Shown here: positions 1,997-62,119 of the stretch, one piece after another
Layout of the letters: each line of letters starts with the position of its first letter
Position numbering within the stretch: position 1 is the stretch's first letter
Assembly: GCA_964507245.1 (NCBI GenBank)
Contig: CAZDQC010000004.1
Location: forward strand, 1,771 to 65,770
DNA: 64,000 nt
Direction: 5' to 3'
Source of the DNA: an uncultured Rhodospirillaceae bacterium
GTDB taxonomy: Bacteria > Pseudomonadota > Alphaproteobacteria > GCA-2731375
Made by a program: the position numbers and the translations under genes
The notes under the pieces: model-generated
Told to the model about the DNA's origin: nothing
The model's input: only the letters and a program-made list of their open reading frames with translations
Databases searched by the model: none

Positions 1997-2010
1997 AGAT
2001 TGGTCACTGT

Positions 2011-4682: not shown

Positions 4683-4847
4683 CCTGATACCTCCTGATGT
4701 TCGTAACGGCGAAAAGTTGTCGAAGAAATTTCGACCTTCTTTTACCCAATCGAAATCACGTCATCATCCGTAACGACAGTGTACGCATTCAATCCAGGAC
4801 ATGCCGCCTTAAATTCCAAAAAAAATTTGCAAAATATTTTCACAAGA

Positions 4848-6098: not shown

Positions 6099-6101
6099 CG
6101 G

Positions 6102-6587: not shown

Positions 6588-6834
6588 TTTGAGTCTCCTA
6601 GCTTTTCAAACATTCTGCTCCCATTGTCCGAATGGCTCAATATTTGAGGAAAAATTCGTCCGTCGCTTAACTCCTAATTCCTATCTTATCCAAGACATAA
6701 CGCATCCAAGACAACCTATATACTCAGTGAAATGTGCCCCTGCTGCTAATCGATAATACGATTGTTAAGTTGGGTTTTTTGGGAAAACGCGCTATGAATT
6801 AAATTAGAAACAAAATTGACGAAAGGCCATTCTC

Positions 6835-7779: not shown

Positions 7780-8042
7780 GAGTTAAATCCGGATAGCGTC
7801 GTATAAGTACTGATTTTTGCTGTGCACGTCCGCGCTAGTCGCGAACGCCTGGGGGGATATCTTCTCAAATATTACAACCTTGACGTCGAACAATCCGTAA
7901 ACAAGGCATTGGAGGGCGTCCGCAACCTAGCTGCCTGCCGGATTTCAAGTTGGCCTCAGATACTTCATAAGAAAACTGAGTTTTTGACTTCTAACCAACG
8001 AACCAACTTCTCAACCAAAGCCATCATCAGTATTGAATAGGT

Positions 8043-10052: not shown

Positions 10053-10065
10053 CGGTGCGTCGGCT

Positions 10066-16462: not shown

Positions 16463-16590
16463 CTTAAATAGGTTTATTCTTCGGCGTACTCATCAAGCAA
16501 TTCAGTATCAATTGCTAACAAACGGCCTCCCCATTGCATCCAAGTAACGCTCCTGAAATTTTGAGACCGTGCCGTTACTCATCCCATTCA

Positions 16591-42927: not shown

Positions 42928-43656
42928 TTAATGACTGAGTATTTGGCTTAAAAATAATTTTGTACGGTCACTCTCTGGATTATTAAAAAACTCTTCGGGT
43001 TCATTCTCTTCAACAATTTCACCTGCATCCATAAAAATAACCCTGTTCGCCACTTGACGCGCGAAACCCATTTCATGAGTAACAACGAGCATGGTCATTC
43101 CTGATTCAGCAAGTTCAATCATCACATCAAGCACTTCCTTGATCATTTCTGGATCTAGGGCTGATGTCACTTCGTCAAAAAGCATGACCTTAGGTTGCAT
43201 GCATAATGAACGAGCAATAGCAACACGTTGCTGTTGCCCGCCCGAGAGTTGTCCAGGAAATTTCTGAGCCTGCTCGGGAATTTTAACGCGCTCCAATAAT
43301 TCCATAGCCAATTCCTCAGCATCACTCCGAGGCATTTTTCGGACCCAAACCGGACCTAAAGTACAATTTTCTAAAACAGAAAGATGGGGAAATAAATTAA
43401 AACTCTGAAAAACCATCCCGACATCGCTTCTTATTTCGGCGATATTTTTTATATTAGAGGTTAGTTCAATTCCATCGACATTTATTGATCCTTCCTGATG
43501 CTCCTCCAGCCGGTTGATACAACGTATCAGGGTCGACTTTCCGGATCCGGACGGACCACAAATTACAATTTTTTCACCACCATCTACGCTTAAATTAATG
43601 TCTTTCAAGACATGGAATGAACCAAACCATTTATGCATATTTTCGATCTTAATCAT
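42928..43656 (-). CDS. aapP: Amino acid ABC transporter ATP-binding protein (polar amino acid family, AapP/GlnQ-like)
   Basis: 242 aa with Walker [10 protein letters not shown], signature LSGGQQQRV, and Walker [12 protein letters not shown]. Confidence 0.85.
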
Positions 43657-43713
43657 CGCCTCTTTCCTAATTATTCGGAATTCTTACTGTTTGATGAAAG
43701 CATTAGCGATATT

Positions 43714-44793
43714 TTAATCATGATCTGTATTCAAACGTTTTTCTAAAAATATCGAATATCGCGACATTGAAAAACAGCAAATAAAGAAAAATATTGCTAT
43801 AAATATGTATACTTCAATATGCAAACCGCCCCATTTAGTATCAGCTAACGACGCCCTTCCAATCCCTAATGGATCTAATAACCCGATAATGATAACCAAT
43901 GTCGTATCTTTGTATAAACCTATGAAACTATTGACAATTCCGGGTATTGAAATCTTTAAAACCTGCGGCATGACAACTAATCGATGGGTCTTCCAGTAAC
44001 TTAACCCAATTGCTTGGCTCGCTTCATATTGTCCAACTGGGATGCCCGCGAGTCCACCCCGAATTACTTCAGCCAAATAAGCAGCTGAGAAAAAAGTCAC
44101 CATAATCAAAACACGTAGCAGAAGATCGAATGAGGTACCCGGTGGAAGAAAATAATTCAACATTGTGGAAGCGATAAATAATATAACGATCAGTGGAACG
44201 CCGCGGAGAACTTCAATAAAAATCACGCAGAGAATTTTAACGGCTGGTAAGTTTGAAGTACGGCCCAACGCAAGGAATATGCCAATTGGTAAGGAAAAAG
44301 CGACCCCTGTAATACCAACAATTATAGTAAGCATTATTCCGCCGAATAGGTCCGTGGTAACTGGTTCTAATCCCAAACCACCTAACAAAACCCAACCCGC
44401 TAAGAATGGGAATAACATGCTGTATAGGAGCAAGTATTTTCGGTATGGCAATTTTTCTACAAAAATCGGTATGAAAGCCAAAATTAATAGTATGAATGTT
44501 AGATTTACTCTCCAATGAAGATGCGTTGGATAGAAGCCGTAAATAAACATATTAATTCTTTTGGTAATAAAGGCCCAGCATGCCCCCTCCCCTGGCGTGG
44601 CCATTTGCTCCCAACACGAATTGCGGCTATCCCCCAACCAGACAGAATTGATTAAAGCCCATTCGAAGATCGGAGGAACAACGACAATAACGATGTAGAT
44701 CGATAATATGGTTAGCACAGCATCGAACGGCGAAGAAAATAAATTCTGCCGCAACCACCTTACTACTTTATTTAGCGCATTTACTTGGGGCAT
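43714..44793 (-). CDS. aapM: Amino acid ABC transporter permease (AapM-like)
   Basis: 359 aa membrane protein with an EAA-like loop (GLSYWKTHRLVVMPQ). It is strongly AT-rich. Confidence 0.8.
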   Translation of the reverse strand: MPQVNALNKVVRWLRQNLFSSPFDAVLTILSIYIVIVVVPPIFEWALINSVWLGDSRNSCWEQMATPGEGACWAFITKRINMFIYGFYPTHLHWRVNLTFILLILAFIPIFVEKLPYRKYLLLYSMLFPFLAGWVLLGGLGLEPVTTDLFGGIMLTIIVGITGVAFSLPIGIFLALGRTSNLPAVKILCVIFIEVLRGVPLIVILFIASTMLNYFLPPGTSFDLLLRVLIMVTFFSAAYLAEVIRGGLAGIPVGQYEASQAIGLSYWKTHRLVVMPQVLKISIPGIVNSFIGLYKDTTLVIIIGLLDPLGIGRASLADTKWGGLHIEVYIFIAIFFFICCFSMSRYSIFLEKRLNTDHD

Positions 44794-44845
44794 ATTTATT
44801 CAGTTCAGCAGCACCTTACCCAAATAACCAGATCTTTCATTTCCA

Positions 44846-46027
44846 TTACCTATCCTTTATTCCTATGCTTCTATTATAAATATTCATAAGCAAAGATATG
44901 AAAAGGGAACACAATAGGTAAACTAACAGAACAATTATCATTGTTTCCATTTCTTTACCTGTTTGCATTAACGAAATCCCGCCGATCGTAGCCATTATAT
45001 CCATATAACCAATTGCGAGAGCCAAAGATGAATTTTTTGTTAGGTTCAAATATTGACTAGCAAGAGGCGGTATAATAATTCGCAATGCCTGCGGTATCGT
45101 AACAAGCTGAAGGGTGCGTTTAGGTGTTAAGCCTACGGCATACGCAGCCTCTGTTTGGCCCTTGTGTACAGCGAGTATTCCCCCTCTGACAATTTCCGCG
45201 ATAAACGCCGAGGTGTAATAGGACAATGCAAACCAAAGGGCTATATACTCAGGCCTTACAGCCAGCCCGCCCCGAAAATTAAAGCCGCGCAGGGATGGTA
45301 TTTCCAGCCCTACTGGAGAATCAGATGCAAAAAAAGTTATCCCGGTAATTCCAAAAATGAAGATCAATCCGATGGAAAATATGGGATAAATTTTTCCTGT
45401 TTTGGCTTGCACTTGTTTAGCCCAAACCCTGTAGATTAAAAATAGGATGATAGAAACTATAATCGCCACGATGACGTAATTGAAACCATCTTGAAAAATG
45501 GGCCTTGGGATAAAAAATCCTCGGTTTGTTAGGTGTACTACATCCCCGATTGAAAGAGCTTTTTTGGGGACCGGCAAGCTATGAATAATGATACTATGAA
45601 TAAATAAAATATGGAGAAGAACGGGCACATTACGGGTAAATTCAACAAATATATAAGATAATTTATTAACAAGAAAATTTGATGACAGCCGGCAGATGCC
45701 AAGGATAAATCCAAGTATAGTTGCCAATATGATTCCAGTTATAGCGACTAATAATGTATTTAATAATCCTACTAAGGCTGCCCTAAAATGTGTGTCGGTT
45801 GGAGAATATTCGATAAAGGGCTGAAAGGTGATATCGTAGCCTGCCGGGTAAGCAAGAAAATCGAAACTGAACTCCTTACCCACCGAAGCTAGATTTACCG
45901 TAATATTCTGTATAATCAAAAAAACAAGCAACAGCACTAATATCAAGGTCACCGTCTGCAAAATAAGCGATCGGGTCTTTTGATCATTTAGCAGATTGAT
46001 GAGACTTATATTCGTAGTGCGTTCCAT
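44846..46027 (-). CDS. aapQ: Amino acid ABC transporter permease (AapQ-like)
   Basis: 393 aa membrane protein with an EAA-like loop (GLTPKRTLQLVTIPQALR). It is strongly AT-rich. Confidence 0.8.
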   Translation of the reverse strand: MERTTNISLINLLNDQKTRSLILQTVTLILVLLLVFLIIQNITVNLASVGKEFSFDFLAYPAGYDITFQPFIEYSPTDTHFRAALVGLLNTLLVAITGIILATILGFILGICRLSSNFLVNKLSYIFVEFTRNVPVLLHILFIHSIIIHSLPVPKKALSIGDVVHLTNRGFFIPRPIFQDGFNYVIVAIIVSIILFLIYRVWAKQVQAKTGKIYPIFSIGLIFIFGITGITFFASDSPVGLEIPSLRGFNFRGGLAVRPEYIALWFALSYYTSAFIAEIVRGGILAVHKGQTEAAYAVGLTPKRTLQLVTIPQALRIIIPPLASQYLNLTKNSSLALAIGYMDIMATIGGISLMQTGKEMETMIIVLLVYLLCSLFISLLMNIYNRSIGIKDR

Positions 46028-46150: not shown

Positions 46151-47167
46151 TCAACGGAACGGCGGTGAATATTGAAGGCCGCCCTTAGTCCAAAGAGCAT
46201 TCAGTTCACGGTTCAGGCCAATGGCAGTATTTGGGCCAATATTGCGCTCAAAAATTTCACCATAATTGCCTACAGCCTTGATGATATTCTTGGCCCAATC
46301 CTTGTTCAAACCAAGCTCCTCACCTTGACTGCCTTCCATACCGACAAACCGCTTAATTTCTGGGTTCTTCGTTTGATGACCGATATGGTCGACGTTTGCT
46401 TGTGTAATGCCGAGTTCCTCAGCGGTGATTGTCGCGTACAAAACCCAACGAACGATATCTGCCCACTGGTCATCTCCTTGCCGTACGGCTGGGCCGAGCG
46501 GCTCCTTAGAGATGATTTCTGGCAAAATCGTATGGTTCTTGGGATCCTTGAACGTGGAACGGGTCGCTGCAAGGCCTGATGCATCAGTGGTATACACATC
46601 GCCTCGACCAGAAAGATAGCATTGGCGCGCTTCTTCGTTAGTTTCGATCGCTACAGCCTCATATTTCATGCCGTTTGACCGAAAGTAGTCCGCCAAGTTT
46701 AATTCCGTCGTGGTGCCAGTCTGGATACATACAGAAGCACCATCAAGTTCCTTGGCACTCTTAATACCCATACTATTCTTTACCATGAAGCCTTGGCCGT
46801 CATAGTAATTCACACCGAGAAAAGTCAGCTTAACACCAACGTCCCGCGAGAAGGTAATGGTCGTATTTCTCCAAAGGACATCGCCTTCGCCAGAGTTCAG
46901 TTTTGTAAAGCGTGTCTTTCCTGTACTTGTAACAGCCTTGATCTTGTTTGCGTCGCCAAGTACTGCCGCCGCTGTTGCACGACAAAAGTCGACGTCAAAA
47001 CCTTTCCACTTTCCGCTGTCATCAGGATAAGCAAAGCCAGCGATACCGGTGCTGACGACACAGCGCAGGACACCAGCCTTCTTTACATCCTCGAGCGTCC
47101 CAGCTAGGGCACCCGTAGACACCACTGCGGCCGTGGCCGCAGCTGCTATAAATCCAAGATATTTCAT
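46151..47167 (-). CDS. aapJ: General L-amino acid ABC transporter substrate-binding protein (AapJ-like)
   Basis: 338 aa with an N-terminal signal peptide (MKYLGFIAAAATAAVVSTGALA) and the periplasmic binding protein fold of the polar amino acid family. Its GC content is normal, unlike the permease genes. Confidence 0.85.
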   Translation of the reverse strand: MKYLGFIAAAATAAVVSTGALAGTLEDVKKAGVLRCVVSTGIAGFAYPDDSGKWKGFDVDFCRATAAAVLGDANKIKAVTSTGKTRFTKLNSGEGDVLWRNTTITFSRDVGVKLTFLGVNYYDGQGFMVKNSMGIKSAKELDGASVCIQTGTTTELNLADYFRSNGMKYEAVAIETNEEARQCYLSGRGDVYTTDASGLAATRSTFKDPKNHTILPEIISKEPLGPAVRQGDDQWADIVRWVLYATITAEELGITQANVDHIGHQTKNPEIKRFVGMEGSQGEELGLNKDWAKNIIKAVGNYGEIFERNIGPNTAIGLNRELNALWTKGGLQYSPPFR

Positions 47168-50328: not shown

Positions 50329-51392
50329 TGTTGGATCTAAATGTAAGTACTCGCCTGGGAGAATTCTCGGTCGAAGCTAATATCAAAGCCGACGCCGGTG
50401 TGACAGCTCTTTTTGGACCCTCCGGGGCCGGAAAGACCACTTTAGTCAATATGTTAGCCGGTCTACTTCGTCCGGAGCGGGGCCACATTATCGTACAAGG
50501 GGAAATTCTGTTTGATCGAGAACAGGGGATAGATGTACCGCCCGAAGCGCGCCGCATTGGCTATGTGTTTCAAGAAAGTCGACTATTTCCCCACATGTCC
50601 GTGGCCGCAAATCTGAACTATGGGCGCCGACAAGACACGGTCAACTTTGACGCCGTCTTGGACCTATTAGCGTTGGCACCGTTACTGAAACGACGCCCCA
50701 ATTCCTTGTCCGGCGGCGAACGCCAACGAGTCGCTATCGGGCGAGCCCTTTTGGCGTCGCCACGGATATTATTAATGGACGAGCCATTGGCCAATCTGGA
50801 TGCACCCCGCCGATCTGAAATTTTACCATTCATTGAGGATTTACGGCGGGAGTTTTCTCCTTCCATTGTTTATGTTTCCCACAACATGGACGAAATCATA
50901 AGACTCGCGGATCAGCTAGTGGTGATGGCAGAAGGCACCGTGGTCGCGAATGGCCCGGTAGCCGAAATCACCTCGCGTCTAGACCTGCGGCCCCTTACAG
51001 GTCGCTGGGACGCTGGCTCCGTAATTGATACCGTCGTAGCTGAACAAGATGACAGCGATTTTCTAACCCGGTTGTCGTTTAAGGGAGGGAATCTATGGTT
51101 GCCGCGCTTAGATCTGGCTGTTGGAACAAGCCTACGGATACAGGTCAGAGCGCGGGATGTCAGCATTGCCCTAATTCCACCTGCAGATATCAGCATATTG
51201 AATGTTTTCGCTGGCGAAGTAATTGAGGTTGGTGAGGACGATGGTCCCCAAGTTGACGTTTTGCTTGATATCGGCGCACCATTGTGGGCTCGTATCACTA
51301 AGCGATCGCAACGGGAACTTAATATTGCACCCGGACGGATGGTCCATGCCATGATCAAGGCCATGGCCGTGGACCGCAGCGTTCGCAAATGA
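50325..51392 (+). CDS. modC: Molybdate ABC transporter ATP-binding protein with C-terminal TOBE domains
   Basis: 355 aa with Walker A GPSGAGKTT, signature LSGGERQRV, Walker B LLMDEPL, and a C-terminal Mop/TOBE region. It overlaps modB by 4 nt. Confidence 0.85.
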   Translation: MMLDLNVSTRLGEFSVEANIKADAGVTALFGPSGAGKTTLVNMLAGLLRPERGHIIVQGEILFDREQGIDVPPEARRIGYVFQESRLFPHMSVAANLNYGRRQDTVNFDAVLDLLALAPLLKRRPNSLSGGERQRVAIGRALLASPRILLMDEPLANLDAPRRSEILPFIEDLRREFSPSIVYVSHNMDEIIRLADQLVVMAEGTVVANGPVAEITSRLDLRPLTGRWDAGSVIDTVVAEQDDSDFLTRLSFKGGNLWLPRLDLAVGTSLRIQVRARDVSIALIPPADISILNVFAGEVIEVGEDDGPQVDVLLDIGAPLWARITKRSQRELNIAPGRMVHAMIKAMAVDRSVRK

Positions 51393-51401
51393 GCCTTCGG
51401 G

Positions 51402-51650
51402 TTAGTCTTTCTTTAGATTGGAGATATTGGGCCGTTCGGCCACACCTTCAGGTACGTCAACAGCTCGCGGCGTCTGGTTGTAAAAAAGGAAGGCTGGAAC
51501 AGCACCGATTATCAAGGCAATCACGATCGTGCCCGGCCAATGAAATTTAGTGAGGCCCCTGAAACGCCGCTGCCGCGCACTCCGCACCAAATATACGACA
51601 GCCACCACAACGACCGCCGAGACCAGCCATATCAGCCAAAAGTCCCTCAT
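51402..51650 (-). CDS. Small hypothetical membrane protein (2 TM helices)
   Basis: 82-aa ORF with two hydrophobic helices. It is convergent with modC. No motif is recognised. Confidence 0.35.
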   Translation of the reverse strand: MRDFWLIWLVSAVVVVAVVYLVRSARQRRFRGLTKFHWPGTIVIALIIGAVPAFLFYNQTPRAVDVPEGVAERPNISNLKKD

Positions 51651-51674: not shown

Positions 51675-52457
51675 TTACAAATCGATGTCTTGTAAGGCAA
51701 TAGCGCGGCCTTTGGCCGCCGCCATCAAATAAGACAGATCGCTACCGCCTAAGACCATGCGAACGCCCATTTTTATGTATTTTGCTGCCAGATCATCATA
51801 GATACCACCCATGCCTGCCCATTTGCGGTTATTTTGGCAAGCGGAAATCGTACTTTCGTAGGCGGCTACGACGTCCTCATGATCATATTGGCCGGGTATG
51901 CCCATTTCGGCACAAAGATCATTGGTGCCTATCAAAAGCACATCAACCCCGTCAACACCGGCGATTTCATCAGCATTGGCGATAGCCTCTGGGCTCTCCA
52001 ACATAACCACGACTAGCAAATTTTCGTTAATTAGCTTGGTCGCTTCGGCCATGGGGAGATTTTCGTATTCCAAAATTGCGGCGCCACCAGCGAGGGATCG
52101 GTGACCGAGCGGGGGATAGAGACACTGATCGACCACGCGTCGTGCCTCCTTGGCAGAATTTACGTGCGGTACCACGATGCCTTGCGCTCCGGCATCTAAC
52201 GGCCGGCTCGCATGGTGATGGAGGTGCGACGAAGCCCTCACAATCGGCGTGCAGCCGGCATCCAGTCCAGCTAGGGAAATATCCGCAACTGTTTCTAAAT
52301 TCAACGGACTATGTTCCATATCAATAAACAGCCAGTCATATCCACAGACCTTGGCGACTTTTGCAATCTCGACGCCACGGGCAATACGCACGCCAATTCC
52401 CAGCGACAATTCTCCGTCGGATAGCTTTTGCTTGGTAACATTCTGTATGATAGCCAT
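51675..52457 (-). CDS. HpcH/HpaI family aldolase (2-keto-3-deoxy-acid / 2,4-dihydroxyhept-2-enedioate aldolase-like)
   Basis: ORF 51675-52544. The ATG at 52457 (MAIIQNVTKQ...) has an AGGAA RBS. The TIM-barrel class II aldolase signatures (FIDMEHSP, VVMLESPEA) are present. Confidence 0.8.
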   Translation of the reverse strand: MAIIQNVTKQKLSDGELSLGIGVRIARGVEIAKVAKVCGYDWLFIDMEHSPLNLETVADISLAGLDAGCTPIVRASSHLHHHASRPLDAGAQGIVVPHVNSAKEARRVVDQCLYPPLGHRSLAGGAAILEYENLPMAEATKLINENLLVVVMLESPEAIANADEIAGVDGVDVLLIGTNDLCAEMGIPGQYDHEDVVAAYESTISACQNNRKWAGMGGIYDDLAAKYIKMGVRMVLGGSDLSYLMAAAKGRAIALQDIDL

Positions 52458-52618
52458 GCGAAGATTCCTAATTTTTTTACCGCTTGTTTTCCAAATATCG
52501 ACCCGGCCCAGCCGAACCATAATTGAATTAACATGTCGGCGCACCTAATTCAGGGCTACATGCGTTGTAATTCCGAAACTAATAGAGAGGCCGCGGTATA
52601 GCAAATTATGCACCTGGG

Positions 52619-53422
52619 TTATACAGCGGTACGGATACGTTCCTGGCAGGTACGAATAACTTCATCACCGGGACGTTTCCACCAATTTTCAGCCGAGAAA
52701 ATTTCAACCTCAATCAAGCCATCATAGCCAATGTGGTCAATCCATCTGGTAATCTTCGGGATGTCCACAATCCCGTCACCCATCATGCCACGATCCAGCA
52801 GCAAATCATTGGTTGGCACCAGCCAATCACAAACATGATAGGCTAGCACCCGGTCTCTGGCTCGCTTAATCTGCGCCTCTAGATCAGGGTCCCACCAAAC
52901 GTGATAAATATCCACCGCCACGCCAATTCCGTCGCCCAATACATCACAGAGATCAAGCGCCTGGCCAAGGGTATTGATAGCACATCTTTCAGCCGCATAC
53001 ATGGGATGAAGCGGCTCGATTGCTACTGGCATGCCGGAAGCCCGTGCGTGAGGCAGCACGGCGCCAAGCCCATCACGGATCATTGACCGTGCGCCGGTGA
53101 TATCCTTAGATCCATTCGGCAAACCACCCGCCACCATGATTAAACAATCTGCTCCCAAGGCCACGGCCTGATCCACAGCCAACAGATTGTCATCAATCCT
53201 TGCTTGACGCTCCATATTAGTAGTGCCAGGAAACTGACCCGCACGGCACAGGCCTGAAACTCGAAGGCCATGTTCGTCAAGCATCCGAACGGCTTCATTC
53301 AGACCACATTCCGCTAACTTGTCACGCCAGATTGAGATGCCAGTCACACCTGCTTGTGCGTATGCAATTATAGCTCCGGCAAGGTTATGTTGCTCTCGGG
53401 TCGTAGCCTGGTTGATAGACAT
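52619..53422 (-). CDS. Sugar phosphate isomerase/epimerase (xylose isomerase-like TIM barrel)
   Basis: ORF 52619-53494. The ATG at 53422 (MSINQATT...) lies 10 nt after the upstream gene stop. The AP-endonuclease-2/xylose-isomerase-like TIM barrel has metal-ligand Glu, Asp and His positions (IEPLHP, DIYH, EVEIF). Confidence 0.75.
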   Translation of the reverse strand: MSINQATTREQHNLAGAIIAYAQAGVTGISIWRDKLAECGLNEAVRMLDEHGLRVSGLCRAGQFPGTTNMERQARIDDNLLAVDQAVALGADCLIMVAGGLPNGSKDITGARSMIRDGLGAVLPHARASGMPVAIEPLHPMYAAERCAINTLGQALDLCDVLGDGIGVAVDIYHVWWDPDLEAQIKRARDRVLAYHVCDWLVPTNDLLLDRGMMGDGIVDIPKITRWIDHIGYDGLIEVEIFSAENWWKRPGDEVIRTCQERIRTAV

Positions 53423-53432
53423 GCGGGCTGGA

Positions 53433-54812
53433 TCAGCCACAATACAACTCCCGCATATCAGCGAAGTCAGGCTCCGCACCATAGGCAAAACCAACGCTAT
53501 TCAATGATCCTATTGTGATCAGACCCTCCTTGATGGTCAGACGAGTGACGCCACCTGATTCATGATAGATATCGGGATGGGCCTTACGGAATGCTACCTG
53601 TTCCGCGTGGGGGACACCGGTCAACCCATTGACATAGTGATGGCCATTTCGTTCTACATGGGTGATGCCCAACAAATTAACGAGCGCCAAATCCTGCTGC
53701 ACCGACAGACCTGCCTGGGTAGTCAAATCTTCTGCCGACATAAAGAACCCCTGACCCCAATGGTCACAACGCCCTCGATTCAAAATCGATTTGTAAAGAC
53801 CCTTGCAGGATTTTGAAGAAACACCACGATAACCCAATTCTCGGCCTCTAGGAAACGCCTCAAGGGACCCATCCGATTCATCAAGGATTACAGGCTTCCG
53901 TGCGCTCAACTCGCTGACATCAACTTCCAAGGCGACGCTGCGGGATATCGGTTGTTCCACGAACAGGATAGACTGATTAAACCGTTTCAAGCGGGGATTG
54001 CCCTCAATCCCATCCAATAATGCGCTAACCCCTCGTACATCTCCATATTGTTCATTACCATCCAAGCTGACAATGTATCCATCGTCACACTCATCGAGCA
54101 AATCAGCGATTTCCACCAAGCGGGCGATATCTTCACTAAGATCACCGCAGACCTTAATCTTGAAGTAATTGTGCCCGTAAGTGGCGATGACCTCACTCAG
54201 TGTTTCGGGTAGGCCGTCGGCAACCGATTGTGGATTTTTTCTAATCGGATCGAGCATCCCGACCGTATGTCGTGCGTGGATACTGCGTGCCGGACTCAAG
54301 CCAGCCAAAAACTGGTCCATGTCAAATTCATCGCTAGTAATACCAGGCAAATTACCTTGCACGGCACTATAGAAGGACACTTTCTGTAACCTACAAAGAC
54401 TGTCAAGAATGGCGCGGTCTAAGATAGCCGGACCGTAGCAGGCGACGAGGGAATTATCTCCTCTTCCACCACATATTTGGATTTGTTCTTTGTAATTTGA
54501 TAGGAACAAGCCGAAGGCTGTCGCGGGAGAGGCGTTGCGGTATAGAAAAGTCGCGGTACACAAGGAATGGCGTAATTGGTCAAAGTTATCTTCATTACTG
54601 AGCCCCAAATTTTTGTCGAACCATTTGGGCGCCAACATCTCCGCTGATAGTCCCCAACCTTCCCGCCCGTCAAGTAGCCGTATACGCACCCGAGCGAATA
54701 CCTGGGGGCATTCGCGCAAAGTGGTAACCCCAAATTTGAAAGGCATGCGCAGGGTGACATCTCGCTCGTACAGCTGTACTTCTTCAACCGAAAGTTTGGT
54801 GTATTCAGCCAA
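53433..54812 (-). CDS. Enolase superfamily enzyme (mandelate racemase subgroup-like; probable acid-sugar dehydratase or epimerase)
   Basis: 459 aa with a KxK motif (FKIKVCG) and D/E/D metal ligands (SLDGNEQY, FVEQP, ILDESD). Confidence 0.65.
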   Translation of the reverse strand: MAEYTKLSVEEVQLYERDVTLRMPFKFGVTTLRECPQVFARVRIRLLDGREGWGLSAEMLAPKWFDKNLGLSNEDNFDQLRHSLCTATFLYRNASPATAFGLFLSNYKEQIQICGGRGDNSLVACYGPAILDRAILDSLCRLQKVSFYSAVQGNLPGITSDEFDMDQFLAGLSPARSIHARHTVGMLDPIRKNPQSVADGLPETLSEVIATYGHNYFKIKVCGDLSEDIARLVEIADLLDECDDGYIVSLDGNEQYGDVRGVSALLDGIEGNPRLKRFNQSILFVEQPISRSVALEVDVSELSARKPVILDESDGSLEAFPRGRELGYRGVSSKSCKGLYKSILNRGRCDHWGQGFFMSAEDLTTQAGLSVQQDLALVNLLGITHVERNGHHYVNGLTGVPHAEQVAFRKAHPDIYHESGGVTRLTIKEGLITIGSLNSVGFAYGAEPDFADMRELYCG

Positions 54813-54975
54813 AATAACCCCCTAGATACCGCGCCAATGAGCAATGGCTCGAACACGGGGTATTATCGTGAGATTACCATATACAAACTCACCCACATTG
54901 TGACCTAGGGTCGCCACGAATTCACCCTGTTCAAGAAACCGCTTGCCTTGATCACTTCAATACATAACGAAATTT

Positions 54976-55992
54976 TCACAAAGGTACCCTTCGATTTTCC
55001 ATCGACGAATATTCGATAGCTTCAAGAATACGGGCCATACCCACACCACATTCATCTACACCCGCCAAAGGTAGTCTCTTGCCATCCACAGCGTCTAAAA
55101 AAGCCCGAAACTCCGCCGCTACGACTTGAAAGGGCTCAGTCACAGCGCAATAGGGTTTTTCGACGCCTTGGTTGTTGGGTTGCCAAATACCCCCCACCAA
55201 TTCATGACGTACCCGATGAACCTGCAAATCATTGACCTGGTAGTCAATCTCCACCGCCCCCTTACTCCCCGAAACCATGAACTCCTTCGTCTGGGTAGCG
55301 CCCGGAACAATATTGTCGTTCCAGCGACCGGGCTGGATGCAACCGACCTCTACTTGCGCCAAGGCGCCAGTGGCATAGAACAGCCGGATTAGGGCAAAGT
55401 CGTCATACCCCCGGCTGAAATGATCTTTGGTTACGGCATCGACTTCTAACGGCAACTCGCCCGTCATCCAATTGGCCTGATCGATAAAATGAACAGCGTC
55501 ATTCGCCACGACGCCGCTGTCGGACCTAGCCCTTTTATACCCATGGAAGCGGCCTGACATATACCGCAAATCACCTAGACGGCCTTTGTCAATTTCTTCC
55601 TTTGCCCGCTGAGCTAAGGGATGAGCCCGGAAATAAAAGCCTACTTGAACTACTTGATCTCGTACCATCTCCTTAAAGGCCAAAGCATCGTTGAGAGTTA
55701 GGGTCATAGGCTTTTCAATAAAAATAGGTTTTTCCGTATTCAGCACCGGAAGGCAAACCTCTAAATGCAAATTCGTCGGAGCCAATATCACCACGAGGTC
55801 TGCCTTTTCCAAAAAGTCCGTTACCGCCCCCGATACCTGATTAGGCGCAATACCTAAATCTACACATCTACACCGCGCCGCCTCATCCGGATCGACTATA
55901 TACAAATCATCGGCCAAACCCAGCGAGCGCCACGCTGCTAAATGCGTAGGTCCAAAATTGCCAAACCCTATTTGCAATATACAACGCCTCAA
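54976..55992 (-). CDS. Gfo/Idh/MocA family oxidoreductase
   Basis: 338 aa with an N-terminal Rossmann motif (ILQIGFGNFGP) and the EKP motif (IFIEKPM). The start is non-ATG (TTG at 55992 or 55977). Confidence 0.8.
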   Translation of the reverse strand: MRRCILQIGFGNFGPTHLAAWRSLGLADDLYIVDPDEAARCRCVDLGIAPNQVSGAVTDFLEKADLVVILAPTNLHLEVCLPVLNTEKPIFIEKPMTLTLNDALAFKEMVRDQVVQVGFYFRAHPLAQRAKEEIDKGRLGDLRYMSGRFHGYKRARSDSGVVANDAVHFIDQANWMTGELPLEVDAVTKDHFSRGYDDFALIRLFYATGALAQVEVGCIQPGRWNDNIVPGATQTKEFMVSGSKGAVEIDYQVNDLQVHRVRHELVGGIWQPNNQGVEKPYCAVTEPFQVVAAEFRAFLDAVDGKRLPLAGVDECGVGMARILEAIEYSSMENRRVPL

Positions 55993-55994
55993 GG

Positions 55995-56231
55995 CTATTT
56001 CCCTAAGGCAGCAACGCCATGTGTTGTGAGAAAGGCGCGCATGCCGCTGCTAGCTAGTTCTGGATTGACGAGCAGATCAGAGGCGTCTGTCAAGGTATCA
56101 GCTATCACATGGGCATCTGCATAAGCGGTACGGTTGAAGGGACGATTAGCGCGCGCCGGGAAATCCTGCGTCATGGGTCTAGTGAATGGTACCAGGGTGC
56201 CGTCAGAGATCGTTAAATTTAATGGGGGCAC
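55995..56231 (-). CDS. Small ORF (78 aa, GTG start) exactly filling the gap between the two Gfo/Idh/MocA genes; hypothetical
   Basis: Its stop lies 2 nt before the downstream gene start, and its GTG start lies 3 nt after the upstream gene stop. No motif is recognised. Confidence 0.3.
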   Translation of the reverse strand: MPPLNLTISDGTLVPFTRPMTQDFPARANRPFNRTAYADAHVIADTLTDASDLLVNPELASSGMRAFLTTHGVAALGK

Positions 56232-56233
56232 AA

Positions 56234-57391
56234 TCAGGTCTCCAAATCTGGCACTTGTAACCAGCGGCCCTCGGACCAGCTTTGAAGACCCAATTCTGCC
56301 AGTTGCACCCCTTTAGCACCGGCCAGCAGATCCCAAGGAAAGGCGCTATCTTCGTACAAATGGTGAATAAATAATTCCCACTGCGCCTTGAAGGCGTTGT
56401 CGTACTGGACGAGATCAGGAACCTCTTCCCAGCCATCATTATAGTCGATAGTGGGCGGAATGTCCGGATTCCAAACTGGCCTTGGCGTATCGACCAGGGA
56501 TTGAATTCGACAGCGCCGAAGGCCTGCCACAGCTGATCCGTTAGTACCGTCCACATGCAGCGTCAAGAGATCATCCCTGCGGACCCGGGTGCACCAAGAT
56601 GAATTGAAATGGGCGATAACGTCACCCTCTAGCTGGAAAGTGGCATAGGCCGCATCGTCCACATCTGCTTCGTAAGGTTGGTTATATTCGTCCCATCGTT
56701 TTGGAATGTGGGTAGCTCCCAGACAGCTGACTGCCTTCACCGAACCGAAGATGCTGTCCAGCACATACCGCCAATGACACAGCATATCCAGTATGATGCC
56801 ACCACCTCCGCTCTTCTTGTAGTTCCACGAGGGCCGCTGGGCCGGTTGCAGTTCGCCATCAAATACCCAATAGCCGAACTCGCCCCGGACCGACAGAATA
56901 CGGCCGAAAAAATCGGCATCGATCAGGTATTTCAGTTTTCGGATACCAGGCAACCATAATTTATCTTGCACCACCCCATGCTTGATACCAGCCGCCTTGG
57001 CCTTTTCATAGACGGCGTAGGCATCCACTAGATTGTCTGCAGCCGGCTTTTCACAATAAATATTTTTGCCGGCGTCGATGGCCTTGGACAGCAAACTAGC
57101 CCGCGCCTGGGTTGTCGCGGAGTCAAAAAATAGTGTGTCGTCCAGATTAGCGATGGCGGCATCCAGGTCGTCGGTCCAGCGATCGAGACCATGTTCCCGC
57201 GCCAAGGCACCTACCCGACCCGCATCCCGGCCCACCAGAATAGGATCAGGCATCACGCGAGTTCCGTCGGCCAATTCCAAACCGCCCGCCTTCATAATTT
57301 CGAGGATCGAGCGGATCAAATGCTGGTTTTTACCCATACGGCCAGTGACACCGTTCATGATGATGCCTAGACGTTTCTCACTCATACTCAC
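56234..57391 (-). CDS. Gfo/Idh/MocA family oxidoreductase
   Basis: 385 aa with an N-terminal Rossmann motif (LGIIMNGVTGRMG) and the EKP motif (IYCEKPA). Confidence 0.85.
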   Translation of the reverse strand: MSMSEKRLGIIMNGVTGRMGKNQHLIRSILEIMKAGGLELADGTRVMPDPILVGRDAGRVGALAREHGLDRWTDDLDAAIANLDDTLFFDSATTQARASLLSKAIDAGKNIYCEKPAADNLVDAYAVYEKAKAAGIKHGVVQDKLWLPGIRKLKYLIDADFFGRILSVRGEFGYWVFDGELQPAQRPSWNYKKSGGGGIILDMLCHWRYVLDSIFGSVKAVSCLGATHIPKRWDEYNQPYEADVDDAAYATFQLEGDVIAHFNSSWCTRVRRDDLLTLHVDGTNGSAVAGLRRCRIQSLVDTPRPVWNPDIPPTIDYNDGWEEVPDLVQYDNAFKAQWELFIHHLYEDSAFPWDLLAGAKGVQLAELGLQSWSEGRWLQVPDLET

Positions 57392-57509
57392 TCCATGACC
57401 AGTGATTGGCAGATGCGGTGAGGGTGATAACCAAAGCTTCCTGCCTTTTCATCAATATTCGACTTAATATCCCGGTCGCGCAAAAATGACATGAATGAAT
57501 AATCAAACA

Positions 57510-58571
57510 TCATCCCAGCCAAAGTTCTAAATTCTCGGCAACGAAATCGTCGTCACACAGATGTGGGTAATGGGCGATTATCCGATCCAATTCCGCAGCC
57601 TGACCTGGGCTAAGCTTTTCATCTGGGTTTAAGCACCAGTTACCCCGCATCAAACCTTGGCGACGTAACACTTCATTACACCCAGCAATACAGCCTGCGA
57701 AATCATTGGCTACATCAAACAAGGCGCCGTTCGCATCGGTGATCTGACTATCCAATTGAAGTAAATTCATATCGATTTTACCCGCCGCAATGGCCCCATG
57801 TGCCAAACTCAAATAATCAACAGCCGGTTTGACCCATACGCTCCAATGCCCCAATAGACCACCCTTGAAGCGTACGACAACCTCCTCCTCACCCCGTTTC
57901 AACGCATAGGGGGTCAGTAAGTCCAGAAAGATGTGATCATCATTCCCAGTGTAAAGACTAATACGATTTTCTGCTTCCGCAGCGACCACACCACGCATTA
58001 CGTCCAGGGTCCGATAACGATGAAAAGGTGCAACTTTGATGGCGATAACATTATCGATGGCCGCAAAGCGGCGCCAGAAATTCGTCGATAATAAAACACC
58101 ACCTACAGCCGGTTGCAGATAGAAACCCACCAAGGGAATGCGATCGCCGACGGCCCTACAATGGGCAATTATCTCATCCTCATTGGAACCTCTATGGGCA
58201 GCTAGACTTAACAGCCCGGCGTGATAGCCAAGGCCAAGCGCGATATCCGCTTCGGCAATTGCTTGGTTGGTTGATCCCACCAGACCAGCAATCATGATTT
58301 TGGTTTCTTCCGTCCAATCGGCCACGGCTTCCGCCGCCATCCGCAGGACGGGTTCATACAGACCTACGTCGCGTATTTCGAATTGCGTCGAATGCACGCC
58401 CACTGCCAGGCCACCAGCCCCAGCATCTATATAGTAACGGCTTAAGGCCCGCTGATGACGCTCATCCAGAATACGCTGTTCGGTCAATGCCAGGGGATGA
58501 GCGGGGATCACCACGCCCCGACGCAGCAGCGCAATCACTTCGTTGGGCAATTCTTCCCGATGCAACGGCAT
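57510..58571 (-). CDS. Dihydrodipicolinate synthase-like (DapA fold) protein of the DUF993 type
   Basis: 353 aa with a class I aldolase/DapA-like TIM barrel pattern. Family assignment is from memory of DUF993 proteins that cluster with Gfo/Idh/MocA and TIM-barrel isomerase genes. Confidence 0.55.
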   Translation of the reverse strand: MPLHREELPNEVIALLRRGVVIPAHPLALTEQRILDERHQRALSRYYIDAGAGGLAVGVHSTQFEIRDVGLYEPVLRMAAEAVADWTEETKIMIAGLVGSTNQAIAEADIALGLGYHAGLLSLAAHRGSNEDEIIAHCRAVGDRIPLVGFYLQPAVGGVLLSTNFWRRFAAIDNVIAIKVAPFHRYRTLDVMRGVVAAEAENRISLYTGNDDHIFLDLLTPYALKRGEEEVVVRFKGGLLGHWSVWVKPAVDYLSLAHGAIAAGKIDMNLLQLDSQITDANGALFDVANDFAGCIAGCNEVLRRQGLMRGNWCLNPDEKLSPGQAAELDRIIAHYPHLCDDDFVAENLELWLG

Positions 58572-58586
58572 CCTTTCCCCCAGGTT

Positions 58587-59342
58587 CTAGAACGACACCA
58601 CGGTATCGATGTCGTAGGTCAGTGCCGAATTAACTAGTCGCGCCTCGCGATTACCGTAGTGCATGGCACAGGCACGCCGCCATCTATCCGATCGATTGGT
58701 CGATGACTGATGCAGAGTATTTCCATGATGAAAGGAGACCCCACCACATCGTACAGGCGCAGGCGTCATTTTGTATTGACTAGCCACATCGTCGGGAATT
58801 AACAGATTAAATGGTTCCCCTTCTGGTGCGATGTGGGGAATGACGTTGTCATTGTTTGTGCCTTCACCGAAATACAAGCAGCCGTTGCTTTCGTCTGCGT
58901 CGTCCAGAGCGACCCAGGCGGTCACCATGCTTTCATTGTCATTTGGCCCAAAATAGAAATTATCCTGATGCACCGGTTTGGGACCACCACCATTGGGTGC
59001 CTTGAAAAATATCTGACTAAAAAAAACTTTGGGCCCGGGTCCGATGATTTGTTCAACCAGTGAAAGGAGCCCTTTGTCACCAGCGAGAGCCCTAAAAACC
59101 GGTCTCAGGTAGACTGGATTGTCCAGCTTCCGCAAAATAGCTCTATCAGAAATATTAGGTTCCACATACCAGGCGCGATCTGCAGCATTTAATTTGCCGA
59201 TTTCCTCTGCTGCCCAGGTCTCTGCGTCGGTAATGGCTTCATTCATTTGTGTCTCGGAAAATATACCCTCGACGGTTAGATGGCCCCGCGCTCCATAATC
59301 CACGATCTGTTGGGAATTGAGGCAATTCATGACCTTCTCCAT
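58587..59342 (-). CDS. Phytanoyl-CoA dioxygenase (PhyH) family Fe(II)/2-oxoglutarate oxygenase
   Basis: 251 aa with the HxD...H facial triad (HQDNFY ... HHGNTLH). Confidence 0.75.
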   Translation of the reverse strand: MEKVMNCLNSQQIVDYGARGHLTVEGIFSETQMNEAITDAETWAAEEIGKLNAADRAWYVEPNISDRAILRKLDNPVYLRPVFRALAGDKGLLSLVEQIIGPGPKVFFSQIFFKAPNGGGPKPVHQDNFYFGPNDNESMVTAWVALDDADESNGCLYFGEGTNNDNVIPHIAPEGEPFNLLIPDDVASQYKMTPAPVRCGGVSFHHGNTLHQSSTNRSDRWRRACAMHYGNREARLVNSALTYDIDTVVSF

Positions 59343-59646
59343 AAAATAACCATCCAGTTACGTACAGCAGTCTTGTAGGATGGCCAACTGCGGATCGGCG
59401 GAAGAATTAACAGACGCCCTGAGTTTCTATAAGGGCGACATAGGCTATTTCGATCCAATTCCTATGACGGCTGACTACAAACCAATCGAGACCTATTTCA
59501 AGCTCAAAAACCATTCGATATTTCTAAGACTTGCAACAATGACTTCTGGGGTTTGTCGGTGAGGTTCGGAAGCTAGGGTGATAGGAAGAGAAAGGCGCGC
59601 CAAAAATTCTTTCGAGCGGCATAATTCTAACCGAAGTCATTGAAAA

Positions 59647-59952
59647 TCAAATCACTTGCGAGAACTCAACTAATTCCCTCGTCCGCTCAACTTTGCCGGC
59701 CCAGTGGCGATCAAATTCGGTAATAAATCCCTTCAAAATATCCGAATTTAACAGCGTGTTAGCGGTATCCAGGTCCAAAAATTCATAAAATGCAATATGG
59801 ACATTCGCTTCCACACTACTCCAACCACGTTTCGCGCTGAGGGCATTAAAAGCCTTCAAGGCATCGGGCAGATGTTCGTTTTCGTACCAAGCATCAAAAG
59901 CATCCCTAACAGAGGTATCAACCTCAGCACGCACGATTAAATAGGCAGCCAT
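59647..59952 (-). CDS. Hypothetical small protein (about 101 aa; possible dimeric alpha+beta barrel fold)
   Basis: ORF 59647-60015. The ATG at 59952 (MAAYLIVRAEV...) is the likely start. No catalytic motif is seen. Confidence 0.4.
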   Translation of the reverse strand: MAAYLIVRAEVDTSVRDAFDAWYENEHLPDALKAFNALSAKRGWSSVEANVHIAFYEFLDLDTANTLLNSDILKGFITEFDRHWAGKVERTRELVEFSQVI

Positions 59953-60243: not shown

Positions 60244-61086
60244 CTATCCTAGTTCTGGACCAGCGATCAGGAAGACTTGTGCCGGATCATCCAATGGTTC
60301 TTCCCGTTTAAGCAGCATGCGCATATAACCCCGCTGCCGGGAAAACCCAGCCTTAGTCAACCACATCACTAAACTCCTTTGATGATCGGCTGCATCTAAG
60401 AAAACCGATCCACCTTGTGACAAAACGCTATCCAACAAAGTTAATGCGTCGTCCTGCGACCTAGCCGATAAAGGCCCAATCTGGGTCGCTAGCCGGCCAT
60501 CCCGGGCCAGCACAAAACCCTTCAATTCGCCATTTTGTTCCAGTACTAACGCCTGTTCCGGACACCGATTTTGAAGATGTTTAAGTAAGGCCCGCCTGTC
60601 CGCACCGGCTACTGAATAATCAAATTTAGCTACGGTATCCAGATCGTCCTGCTCCATGAACCGCACACCTTCGTGCATATGACCACCCGGCAGATCCGCC
60701 TGCCAACGGCTCAACGGATAAATATCCCTAAACCCCAAGGGAAGATAGATTTGCCTCCCCGCTTCGGTTGCATCTAGGCCCGCGACCAGATCCAACTCTT
60801 GCGCCCGGTCCATGCAACGACGCATCAAACCGCCGGCCAGACCACGTCGCTGCCAGGCACTGGTAACAAGGATCATGGCAATCCAGGCAAATCGGTCACC
60901 TTGGGGTATCAACATTGATGTAGCAACCAGATCACCGCACCGGACGCCCGTACCCTCTCCGTGGCCCAACATGAACAGCCAATCGTCGGCAATCTGGTTC
61001 CAGCCCGCCTCCTCATTCAAGCGGACGGCATTATCCACATCTGCTGCCACCAAAGGCAACCAGATCAGATCATCAATATTTTCCAT
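60244..61086 (-). CDS. GNAT family N-acetyltransferase (two-domain)
   Basis: ORF 60244-61125. The ATG at 61086 (MENIDDLIW...) overlaps the upstream epimerase gene by 14 nt. Acetyltransferase motifs ([11 protein letters not shown]) are present. Confidence 0.65.
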
Positions 61087-62119
61087 CCCGAACTTCAAAA
61101 TGGGTGGGTTTTCCCAGCGATGCACCGTCGCGGGCCACCCAGTCCGCGACCCAATCGACCATGTGAAGCAATGAAACCTTGGGATAGCCGAACAACTTTT
61201 CGGCCAGGCCCGTGTTAATCAACCAAGCCTCCCGTGCCGGTTCGCCTTGCAGTGTAACCTCCCTGTTGAAACGTTTAGCAAATTCTTTAGCCAACCAGGA
61301 AATTGCCGTGACCTCCGGTCCTGTCACGTTCAATGCGCTGTGGGGAGTCGTACAATGGCCCAGGGCGCGCAAAGCCTGTGCATTGGCGTCACCTTGCCAG
61401 ATCACGTTGACATGGCCCATTCTCAAATCTACCGCTTGGCCAGCCCAAACCTTGGTTGCCACATCATACAGTACACCATAGCGCATATCGATCGCATAAC
61501 TTAGGCGGAGGCTACGCCCGGGTGTGCCAAATTGGTTGGAAAAATGCTCAAACACCCGCTCCCGGCCAACGCAGGAATTGGCGTATTCTCCTGGCGGTGG
61601 GGTTAGGGGCGTATTTTCATGAGCACCATGAGAAAAAATTGATACGAATGGATAAACGCAAGCAGTGGAAAAACTGACAATGTTAGCGGCACGGAACCGT
61701 TGCGCTGCAATGGCAGGGGCATGGACATTCATCGCCCAGGTCAAGTCTTCGGCACCTGTGGAACCAAATTTACGCCCTGCCATAAATATAATGTTCGGAA
61801 TCTCTGGCAACGACGCCACGGCGTCTCGATCCAACAAATCGCAAGTGATGGTTTCCACATCATGGCGTTGCAGCTGTTCAACTAATCCTACCTCGGAAAA
61901 GCGTGCAACTCCGATCACCCGTTTTTCCGGCGCGGCACGCTTGGCAAGACGCGCTAGTGTTGGCCCCATCTTCCCGCCAACGCCCAAAACCATAATGTCG
62001 CCATCCAACGCCGCCAGGTCGTTGATCAAGGCCTGACTGGGCCGGCTCATGAATTCATCCAGTGCTGCCTCGTCACTGAACCCCCCAGGGAAATCACGGA
62101 GTTGCAAAACGTCGTTCAT
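61073..62119 (-). CDS. NAD-dependent epimerase/dehydratase family protein
   Basis: 348 aa with an N-terminal Rossmann motif (VLGVGGKMG) and an extended SDR-like core. Confidence 0.75.

Follow-up and report, generated by a model that had tools for sequence, protein, structure and literature searches.

Oxidative uronate and aldarate routes (Udh; Gci or GudD/GarD; KdgD; GarL) draw on an Epimerase-family short-chain dehydrogenase/reductase (SDR), an enolase-superfamily enzyme, a dihydrodipicolinate synthase (DHDPS)-family enzyme and an HpcH aldolase. The levoglucosan (LgdA/LgdB1/LgdB2/LgdC) and 3-keto-glycoside/C-glycoside (DgpA/DgpB/DgpC) oxidation-elimination systems pair Gfo/Idh/MocA dehydrogenases with xylose-isomerase-like TIM barrels and themselves have no enolase-superfamily, DUF993 or DHDPS-type enzyme, and myo-inositol (iol) catabolism uses Gfo-type dehydrogenases and TIM-barrel isomerases or epimerases. 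Here we describe a locus carrying enzymes of these families on the minus strand of a 64-kb stretch of DNA from an uncultured Rhodospirillaceae bacterium (the window, inside which the losses and absences reported below were judged). An orthologous core stands in one string beside a transporter in Sinorhizobium meliloti (SMc04134-SMc04130). The S. meliloti cluster differs in having a CUT1 transporter and in lacking the DHDPS-like, SDR, HpcH and PhyH genes, whereas the window lacks TetR, a transporter and a functional DUF993 gene. We propose, with a probability of about 0.6, that the locus is a reduced, still selected member of a widespread gene cluster for what is probably acid-sugar catabolism.

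A sequence-only reading of this DNA had described an intact operon of eight closely packed minus-strand genes for a sugar or sugar-acid route. The eight open reading frames (ORFs), in one orientation and tightly packed, are confirmed by the ORF list, with spacings of -8 to +163 nt when gene limits are refined. We preferred the limits called on near-identical contigs. In longest form the HpcH ORF spans 51675-52544, and its start is probably at 52457, giving 260 aa and not 289; the TIM-barrel ORF spans 52619-53494, or 273 aa when started at 53440; and the core Gfo and PhyH ORFs span 56234-57391 and 58587-59342. The conserved co-oriented set runs beyond the eight genes, from 51402 (an 82-aa ORF) to 62119 (an extended SDR). 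In a promoter and terminator scan of the locus, promoter-like sites were less numerous than in shuffled sequence, and no intergenic terminator was convincing. The features are as follows:

61073-62119, minus strand: extended SDR of the 'NAD-dependent epimerase/dehydratase' family, 348 aa (Pfam Epimerase, 38.6 bits).
60244-61125, minus strand: GNAT acetyltransferase (Pfam Acetyltransf_18/1), a lineage-specific accessory, syntenic in relatives L002, L009, L090 and L092.
59647-59952, minus strand: conserved 101-aa ORF (longest version 122 aa), called as 101 aa at the same position on L001, L089, L090 and L092.
59381-59577, plus strand: 3' remnant (~65 codons) of an NMT1/NitT-TauT-type solute-binding-protein gene (blastn, tblastx).
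58587-59330, minus strand: PhyH-family Fe(II)/2-oxoglutarate dioxygenase, 247 aa (Pfam PhyH, 93.5 bits).
57510-58571, minus strand: protein of predicted DHDPS/N-acetylneuraminate lyase (NAL) fold, 353 aa (Pfam DHDPS, 29.9 bits; AlphaFold/Foldseek).
57386-57509, no strand: deletion scar where relatives carry ABC permease and ABC ATPase genes (~1.5 kb), recognised from colinear flanks.
56234-57385, minus strand: core Gfo/Idh/MocA NAD-dependent dehydrogenase, 383 aa, ortholog of S. meliloti SMc04133 (Pfam; Protein Data Bank (PDB) entry 3OQB).
55995-56231, minus strand: DUF993 pseudogene remnant, a 78-aa ORF (Pfam, BLASTP, blastn).
54976-55992, minus strand: second Gfo/Idh/MocA dehydrogenase, 333-338 aa, a lineage-specific accessory (Pfam).
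53433-54812, minus strand: divergent enolase-superfamily enzyme, 459 aa, ortholog of S. meliloti SMc04131 (AlphaFold/Foldseek; invariant residues).
52619-53440, minus strand: core xylose-isomerase-like TIM barrel, 273 aa, ortholog of S. meliloti SMc04130 (Pfam AP_endonuc_2, 130.5 bits).
51675-52457, minus strand: HpcH/HpaI-family class II (metal-dependent) 2-keto-3-deoxy-acid aldolase, 260 aa, a lineage-specific accessory (Pfam HpcH_HpaI, 114.9 bits).
51402-51650, minus strand: conserved 82-aa ORF downstream of HpcH, 55-61% identical and syntenic in L002 and L006-L010.

At least eight other loci, on metagenome-assembled genomes and metagenome contigs of related (Rhodospirillaceae-type) alphaproteobacteria, share the gene order of this locus; their enolase-like and DHDPS-like proteins are 63-80% and 71-81% identical to those of the window. 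In these relatives the full order is Epimerase-family SDR - GNAT(s) - NMT1-type binding protein (opposite strand) - TetR - PhyH - DHDPS-like - ABC permease - ABC ATPase - Gfo(383) - DUF993(382-388) - Gfo(338) - [TIM barrel 276-278] - enolase-like - TIM barrel(273) - HpcH - 82-aa ORF. Because this order is kept in so many loci and the genes are under purifying selection, the arrangement is not due to chance. Compared by tblastx and blastn with all of L002, L006-L009 and L090, the window has three gaps. At the first, the TetR gene is gone and the binding-protein gene is down to ~200 nt of its 3' end (59381-59577); this piece matches the 3' end of the L002 NMT1 gene by blastn (68.5% identity over 200 nt, E 3e-13), with similar blastn matches to L006, L007, L009 and L090 and a tblastx match of 63% over 41 aa. 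At the second, ~1.5 kb holding the ABC permease and ATPase genes is absent between 57510 and 57385. At the third, ~940 nt is absent inside the DUF993 gene. Relative to the SMc04130-04134-type set, the window keeps the Gfo, enolase-like and TIM-barrel genes and has lost TetR, an intact DUF993 and an adjacent dedicated transporter.

These gaps are present in independent data. Five contigs from independent metagenome assemblies (L001, L087, L088, L092 and L093) are 98.5-99.5% identical to the window and jointly span all three deletion junctions gap-free; the ABC permease/ATPase junction is spanned by L088, L001, L092 and L093, and L092 holds the complete cluster, from SDR to HpcH, in the same reduced form. 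An assembly artefact is thereby ruled out as the source of the deletions. Insertion in the relatives is rejected, since the NMT1 and DUF993 remnants and the presence of the same genes in distant lineages argue for deletion here. The closest outgroup, L089 (DHDPS-like protein 86% identical), has no transporter, TetR or PhyH and keeps an intact 388-aa DUF993; because of this combination, the loss of the transporter is placed earlier and the DUF993 deletion is recent. Together, these results make it very likely that the locus is a reduced, partly eroded copy of a widespread cluster, from which the binding protein and TetR, the ABC permease and ATPase, and ~313 codons of DUF993 have been deleted.

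The third gap concerns the smallest of the eight ORFs. It had been taken for an independent coupled gene of 78 aa, and its frame is indeed open, with a start 2 nt past the upstream stop codon. It matches Pfam DUF993 (PF06187) at model positions 2-47 of 382 only. In BLASTP against the intact L002 protein, ORF residues 1-51 correspond to DUF993 residues 1-51 (59% identity) and residues 47-73 to DUF993 residues 354-380 (48% identity), the two segments overlapping at a short 'L-x-D-A' stretch. A blastn comparison with L089 showed that the window lacks exactly 942 nt of the DUF993 gene, with 3 nt in their place, an in-frame loss that joins the N-terminal ~51 codons to the C-terminal ~27. The deleted part contains the invariant Lys223 of the family, its YTGDD motif and the whole barrel, and the ORF is thus not a full-length (382-residue) DUF993 member; intact copies in relatives have 382-388 aa. 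Between population variants the remnant shows 12 differences in 237 nt (~5% divergence) and a ratio of non-synonymous to synonymous differences per site (pN/pS) of 1.30, and its stop codon varies, giving 75 aa in L088 and L092 and 78 aa in the window. Because of this ratio and the shifting stop, the remnant is judged to be drifting neutrally. On these comparisons the ORF is best described as a pseudogene remnant of DUF993 left by the in-frame ~940-nt deletion, and the window analysis corrects its annotation. That the locus is an intact, self-sufficient eight-gene operon with a genuine small coupled gene is accordingly very improbable, and we regard this possibility as largely refuted. It draws on the eight close, co-oriented ORFs, of which the seven larger are under purifying selection, and faces the two-part DUF993 origin of the 78-aa ORF, the loss of K223 and the barrel, the intact gene in L089, and the absence from the window of the relatives' transporter and regulator. 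What was read as an intact pathway is a reduced derivative.

The other enzymes have been kept. We computed pN/pS between the window and the near-identical population variants that share its deletions and obtained 0.10 for Gfo338, 0-0.13 for Gfo383, 0-0.09 for the DHDPS-like gene, 0.07 for HpcH, 0.11 for the TIM barrel, 0.10-0.17 for the enolase-like gene, 0.14 for the 82-aa ORF and 0 for PhyH (two synonymous and zero non-synonymous differences); these values rest on 0-28 synonymous differences per gene and show a direction, not precise magnitudes. Summed over the remaining genes, ~60 synonymous differences stand against 16 non-synonymous ones. No frameshift or premature stop was seen in the remaining genes in the five independent contigs. 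All other enzymes are still under purifying selection after the deletions, and their role here, whatever it is, needs neither DUF993 nor a dedicated importer. The three deletions, which took uptake, regulation and a core enzyme, could also be read as the first steps of a locus that is heading for pseudogenisation and no longer functions, and relatives show sporadic losses and disruptions as well (PhyH in L002 and L089, a restriction-modification insertion in L090). The pN/pS of 0-0.17 in every remaining gene and the undamaged frames make this very unlikely. Our preferred reading remains a reduced and still selected cluster.

Several relatives carry further changes in the accessory part of the cluster. 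PhyH has been lost independently in two of them, with a 43-codon 3' remnant in L002 (3735-3863) and complete absence in L089 (1244-1430), and turnover of the accessory genes of the cluster is fast in this clade. In L090 (a GCA_029935915.1 contig), a restriction-modification pair, DNA_methylase and RE_Eco29kI, is inserted between DUF993 and the second Gfo gene (15576-17365). Two small conserved ORFs, of 82 and 101 aa, accompany the cluster in this clade. The former had no significant Pfam match and is likely a membrane protein, judged from two hydrophobic stretches in its translation; the sole Pfam match of the latter was DUF4286, below threshold. In L092, an unrelated 100 nt (16023-16122) stands in place of window positions 50975-51567 (593 nt), which take in the greater part of the 82-aa ORF as well as the 3' end, encoding the TOBE domain, of a convergent ABC ATPase gene. 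L087 agrees with the window version, and the L092 difference is either a structural variant or a misassembly.

The enolase-like gene is the hallmark gene of the cluster, and we used it to follow the cluster in a scan of one genome per GTDB species. The scan confirmed at least 582 stretches as relatives; of the 80 best loci, most come from Burkholderiales, Rhodospirillaceae and Rhizobiales. The enolase-like family itself has more than 8000 homologs at 90% clustering, and 440 clusters at 50% identity with E<=1e-30. Partner genes were counted in 40 loci with full 10-kb flanks around the enolase-like gene. A transporter lies within 10 kb in 38 of these, being of the tripartite tricarboxylate transporter (TTT) type in 23 and of the NitT/TauT-type ABC class in 19, with both in four, and in the sampled loci it sits within the cluster. 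The enzyme and regulator partners were a DHDPS-like protein (25 of 40), a second TIM barrel (23), Gfo, DUF993 and SDR (20 each), the 273-aa TIM barrel (17) and TetR (16). HpcH, PhyH and the second Gfo were found in just 4-5 of the fully flanked loci (HpcH 4, second Gfo 4) and lie outside the conserved core, as lineage-specific accessories. The core comprises a Gfo/Idh/MocA dehydrogenase, DUF993, the divergent enolase-like enzyme of the muconate-lactonising-enzyme (MLE) type and one or two xylose-isomerase-like TIM barrels, linked to a transporter and usually under the putative control of TetR. In this marine alphaproteobacterial lineage it is accompanied by a DHDPS/NAL-type enzyme, an atypical SDR, a second Gfo, HpcH, PhyH and GNAT.

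The S. meliloti string TetR-Gfo-DUF993-enolase-like-TIM, which locus tags and gene order assign to SMc04134-SMc04130, has 53, 64, 70, 48 and 59% identity, respectively; its enolase-like and TIM genes go under the names 'mandelate racemase' and sugar-phosphate isomerase. The string adjoins the genes of a CUT1 sugar ABC transporter and two more Gfo genes, and SMP-30/gluconolactonase is encoded a few genes further along. A Nitratireductor thuwali plasmid has the order TctC-TctB-TctA-TetR-TIM-enolase-like-Gfo-DUF993-TIM, and on pRL10 of R. johnstonii 3841 a 48%-identical enolase-like paralog belongs to an operon that also encodes KduI/IolB, GH39, a TIM barrel, a 2-hydroxyacid dehydrogenase and an ABC transporter of the Opp type. 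Because homologs also occur on haloarchaeal plasmids, the enolase-like family crosses the boundary between bacteria and archaea. In L096, a Natronococcus sp. CG52 plasmid, the neighbours of a 36%-identical homolog (1668-10440) include four Gfo/Idh/MocA genes, an IclR regulator and a gene of the fumarylacetoacetate-hydrolase family. Stand-alone MetE-like (Meth_synt_2) genes adjoin the enolase-like gene in 11 of the 40 loci, sometimes in pairs (L019, L028, L031, L033, L047, L068 and others), and in L004 a MetE-like gene lies downstream together with a LysE exporter.

The counts also bear on whether the locus encodes one pathway at all. Many Burkholderiales have a set of Epimerase, DHDPS-like, transporter, TIM-barrel and enolase-like genes with no Gfo or DUF993 within 10 kb, Gfo and DUF993 are each present in just 20 of the 40 loci, and HpcH, PhyH and the second Gfo are confined to one clade, all of which would suit two or three independent modules lying side by side. 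We consider this rather unlikely, since in S. meliloti and Nitratireductor the enolase-like gene is strung together with Gfo, DUF993 and TIM genes in what is apparently one TetR-controlled operon, and since the linkage recurs in Alpha- and Betaproteobacteria with different gene orders.

We compared the proteins of the cluster with those of the named pathways. No protein of the cluster reached an NCBIfam equivalog cut-off: IolG models gave 50-63 bits (cut-off 355), levoglucosan dehydrogenase (NF052479) 59.3 and 40.2 bits (650), IolO 28-79 bits (300), and HpaI, GarL and RhmA 115-147 bits (369-441). These scores rule out membership of the iol, lgd and dgp systems, and the earlier view that the locus has no one-to-one match with a named pathway holds. 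For lgd and dgp the likeness is confined to the paired families and to distant matches: the second-best PDB match of the core Gfo is levoglucosan dehydrogenase 6A3F and the best of the accessory Gfo is DgpA2, set against a levoglucosan dehydrogenase score of 59 bits where 650 are needed and a DgpA2 E-value of only 7e-12. There is no LgdA equivalog, and a single TIM barrel is left in the window. For iol, the second TIM barrel of the relatives has IolO as its best NCBIfam match (78.7 bits); iolB, iolC, iolD and iolJ were absent among the scanned cluster proteins and neighbours, with no thiamine-diphosphate IolD-type enzyme, kinase or IolB. The oxidative uronate and aldarate routes are alike in their enzyme superfamilies, in the anionic substrate expected, and in that GarL is among the best NCBIfam matches of the window HpcH protein. 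They are unlike in that the likeness stays at superfamily level: the window SDR has no PDB match, the enolase-like protein is 12-20% identical and of MLE type, the GarL score is 131-133 bits against 393-407, and no aldehyde dehydrogenase is present. This likeness serves as a lead, not as a test. Structures exist for several members of the family (4DNH for DUF993, 3JU2 for SMc04130, 3QC0 and 3OQB), all deposited under generic names such as uncharacterized protein, oxidoreductase or sugar isomerase. Literature searches with DUF993, PF06187, the related PDB codes (4DNH, 3OQB and 7VPF) and the family names found no functional information, and those with SMc04130-SMc04140 returned regulon and network tables only.

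The family assignments for HpcH, the TIM barrel, the enolase superfamily, the two Gfo enzymes, the DapA fold and PhyH all stand. Besides the coupled ORF, two labels have to be changed, the first being the mandelate-racemase subgroup given to the 459-aa protein. Its Pfam MR_MLE_C score is 21.7 bits, below the gathering score of 29.4, and a PDB sequence search found no match. An AlphaFold model built on 18 homologs (predicted local distance difference test score, pLDDT, 90) shows the predicted two-domain fold of the enolase superfamily, in which a capping domain at the N-terminus is combined with a modified TIM barrel, and in Foldseek it matched many enolase-superfamily structures with probability 1.0 and E ~1e-16 at 12-20% identity. 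The top matches were dipeptide epimerase, OSBS/NSAR and MLE, all enzymes of the MLE subgroup. All 18 homologs share the putative metal ligands D251, E286 and D311, each placed where a predicted strand ends (247-251, 282-286 and 308-310); K218-x-K220 and K334 are likewise invariant at predicted strand ends, the MLE-subgroup pattern. The His-Asp dyad of the mandelate racemase subgroup was not found, K334 following strand 6 (330-333) and E361 and D362, with no His, following strand 7 (357-360). Taken by the position of motifs in the model, not by residue-level superposition, the enzyme is thus predicted to carry the MLE-type catalytic pattern (KxK, D, E, D, K) and not the mandelate-racemase type. 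Because its identity to any solved member is only 12-20%, the protein represents a new, divergent branch.

The second label is that of the 353-aa protein, which had been called a DapA-fold, DUF993-like protein. The fold is right and the family is not. It scores 29.9 bits with Pfam DHDPS (gathering score 22.1), and its AlphaFold model (pLDDT 91) has DHDPS, NAL and HOGA as top Foldseek matches (E 1e-12, target TM-score 0.86). Lys179, the candidate Schiff-base residue, is invariant and Tyr151 conserved, and in an alignment with DHDPS 3PUD they fall on its catalytic Lys and Tyr; the predicted TIM barrel, lysine and tyrosine place it in the DHDPS/NAL family. It has no Pfam match to DUF993, and BLASTP against real DUF993 gave E 0.58. 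The DUF993 protein of relatives, by comparison, matches PDB 4DNH with E 4e-175, and its invariant Lys223 is a candidate Schiff-base lysine.

The remaining enzymes fall into known families. GFO_IDH_MocA is matched in Pfam by both dehydrogenases (54976-55992 and 56234-57385); the core enzyme matches 3OQB, an 'oxidoreductase', with E 9e-166 and then 6A3F with 1e-13, and the second enzyme has distant PDB matches to DgpA2 (7e-12) and inositol dehydrogenases. The 273-aa TIM barrel matches 3QC0 and 3JU2 with E 1e-106. An aldolase type is supported for the HpcH protein by its Pfam score (114.9 bits) and by PDB matches to YfaU, HpaI and GarL at ~1e-32, with the equivalogs below cut-off (146.5 against 368.8, 133.3 against 393 and 115.4 against 441 bits). 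PhyH has the HxD...H residues and matches PHYHD1, EvdO2 and SnoK at 1e-15 to 1e-12. In the SDR at 61073-62119, Y179-x-x-x-C183 replaces YxxxK and is invariant, together with S151, in 24 sequences (the SDR and 23 homologs); a PDB sequence search gave no match at E<0.01, none of the homologs has a PDB relative by sequence either, and the protein appears to belong to an atypical extended SDR family.

What the cluster acts on can be approached from its transporters and gene contexts. The TTT and anion-type ABC transporters suggest an anion, and the CUT1, GH39 and KduI/IolB contexts suggest a carbohydrate; the substrate is probably an anionic, carbohydrate-like compound. The carbohydrate-type substrate of the sequence-only reading is plausible, given the CUT1 transporter beside the S. 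meliloti ortholog cluster and the GH39 and KduI/IolB genes beside the rhizobial paralog. A tentative scheme for such a compound would begin with its uptake and with NAD+-dependent oxidation by the Gfo and/or SDR enzymes. The TIM barrels would then isomerise, epimerise or beta-eliminate, and the enolase-type enzyme would take the proton alpha to the carboxylate (dehydration, cycloisomerisation or epimerisation) to give a 2-keto-3-deoxy acid. A Schiff-base lyase or the metal-dependent HpcH aldolase would finally cleave this product to pyruvate and an aldehyde; the DHDPS-like protein is one candidate lyase, as is DUF993 where the cluster is intact. DUF993 may have become dispensable here because its role overlapped with those of the added DHDPS-like and HpcH enzymes. 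The order of steps put forward in the sequence-only reading (oxidise, isomerise, dehydrate, cleave) is likewise an inference.

Several observations weigh against this interpretation, and some of them favour an anionic substrate that is not a sugar; examples would be a heteroaromatic carboxylate, a lactone, a dicarboxylate, or a modified amino acid or betaine. On such a substrate the enolase-like protein would act as an epimerase or cycloisomerase, the DHDPS-like protein as a deaminase or dehydratase, and PhyH or MetE-like enzymes would remove or add a substituent. Within the enolase superfamily, MLE-type members are less often acid-sugar dehydratases than enzymes that epimerise or cycloisomerise amino-acid derivatives or muconates, and here dipeptide epimerases, NSAR/OSBS and MLE gave the best fold matches. 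In the relatives, the binding protein is nearest to ThiY and THI5, which bind pyrimidines, and not to sugar binders. Burkholderiales versions have TTT transporters, and some Rhizobiales versions contain genes atypical for sugar pathways (CoA-transferase, old yellow enzyme and MetE-like) as well as a second MR_MLE protein. In hydroxyproline-betaine catabolism, DHDPS-family deaminases co-occur with enolase-superfamily epimerases. Set against these points, the enzymes that most constantly accompany the enolase-like gene are Gfo/Idh/MocA dehydrogenases and xylose-isomerase-like TIM barrels, two families characteristic of the chemistry of sugars and cyclitols; the S. meliloti cluster has CUT1, two further Gfo genes and SMP-30/gluconolactonase nearby; and the rhizobial paralog is accompanied by GH39 and KduI/IolB. 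A non-sugar substrate is, on balance, unlikely. Other cautions are more general. Transporter classes differ between lineages (CUT1, TTT, NitT/TauT), and different clusters may therefore take different substrates; literature, PDB and NCBIfam gave no known substrate or enzyme activity for any core component; the counts behind the pN/pS values are small; and with 64 kb visible, a second DUF993 copy or a transporter could lie elsewhere in the genome. Acid-sugar catabolism remains the reading that we prefer.

A broader proposal, which we regard as possible and well short of probable, is that the five-enzyme core (Gfo, DUF993, the MLE-type enolase-like enzyme and two TIM barrels) constitutes a wholly new pathway for an environmentally common anionic carbohydrate-like compound, present in several hundred proteobacterial species and some haloarchaea. 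DUF993 would then be a new Schiff-base lyase family, and this lineage would have been rewired via the DHDPS-like and HpcH enzymes after the loss of DUF993 and the importer.

Elsewhere in the window, at 42928-46027, G+C is 39-41% in three genes of an amino-acid-type ABC transporter, one for the ATPase and two for permeases, compared with 51% for the window and 50% for the adjacent binding-protein gene (46151-47167). The syntenic transporter genes of L002 show no such drop (56-57% against 61%), and the low-G+C membrane components may be a foreign replacement.

Collectively, these results add a catabolic cluster that is assembled from known superfamilies around an uncharacterised core and is present here in reduced form. 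For the host organism the significance is modest, the locus being one accessory catabolic locus in the course of reductive remodelling. The population data show enzymes that are still selected without DUF993, the regulator and the importer, and this constrains models of how the parts of the cluster depend on one another. The family is widespread, has at least three orphan crystal structures and, as far as we found, no published substrate, reaction or phenotype for its core, which makes it a well-defined target for work on enzyme function, with carriers among cultured bacteria that include S. meliloti 1021 and strains of Ramlibacter, Variovorax and Nitratireductor.

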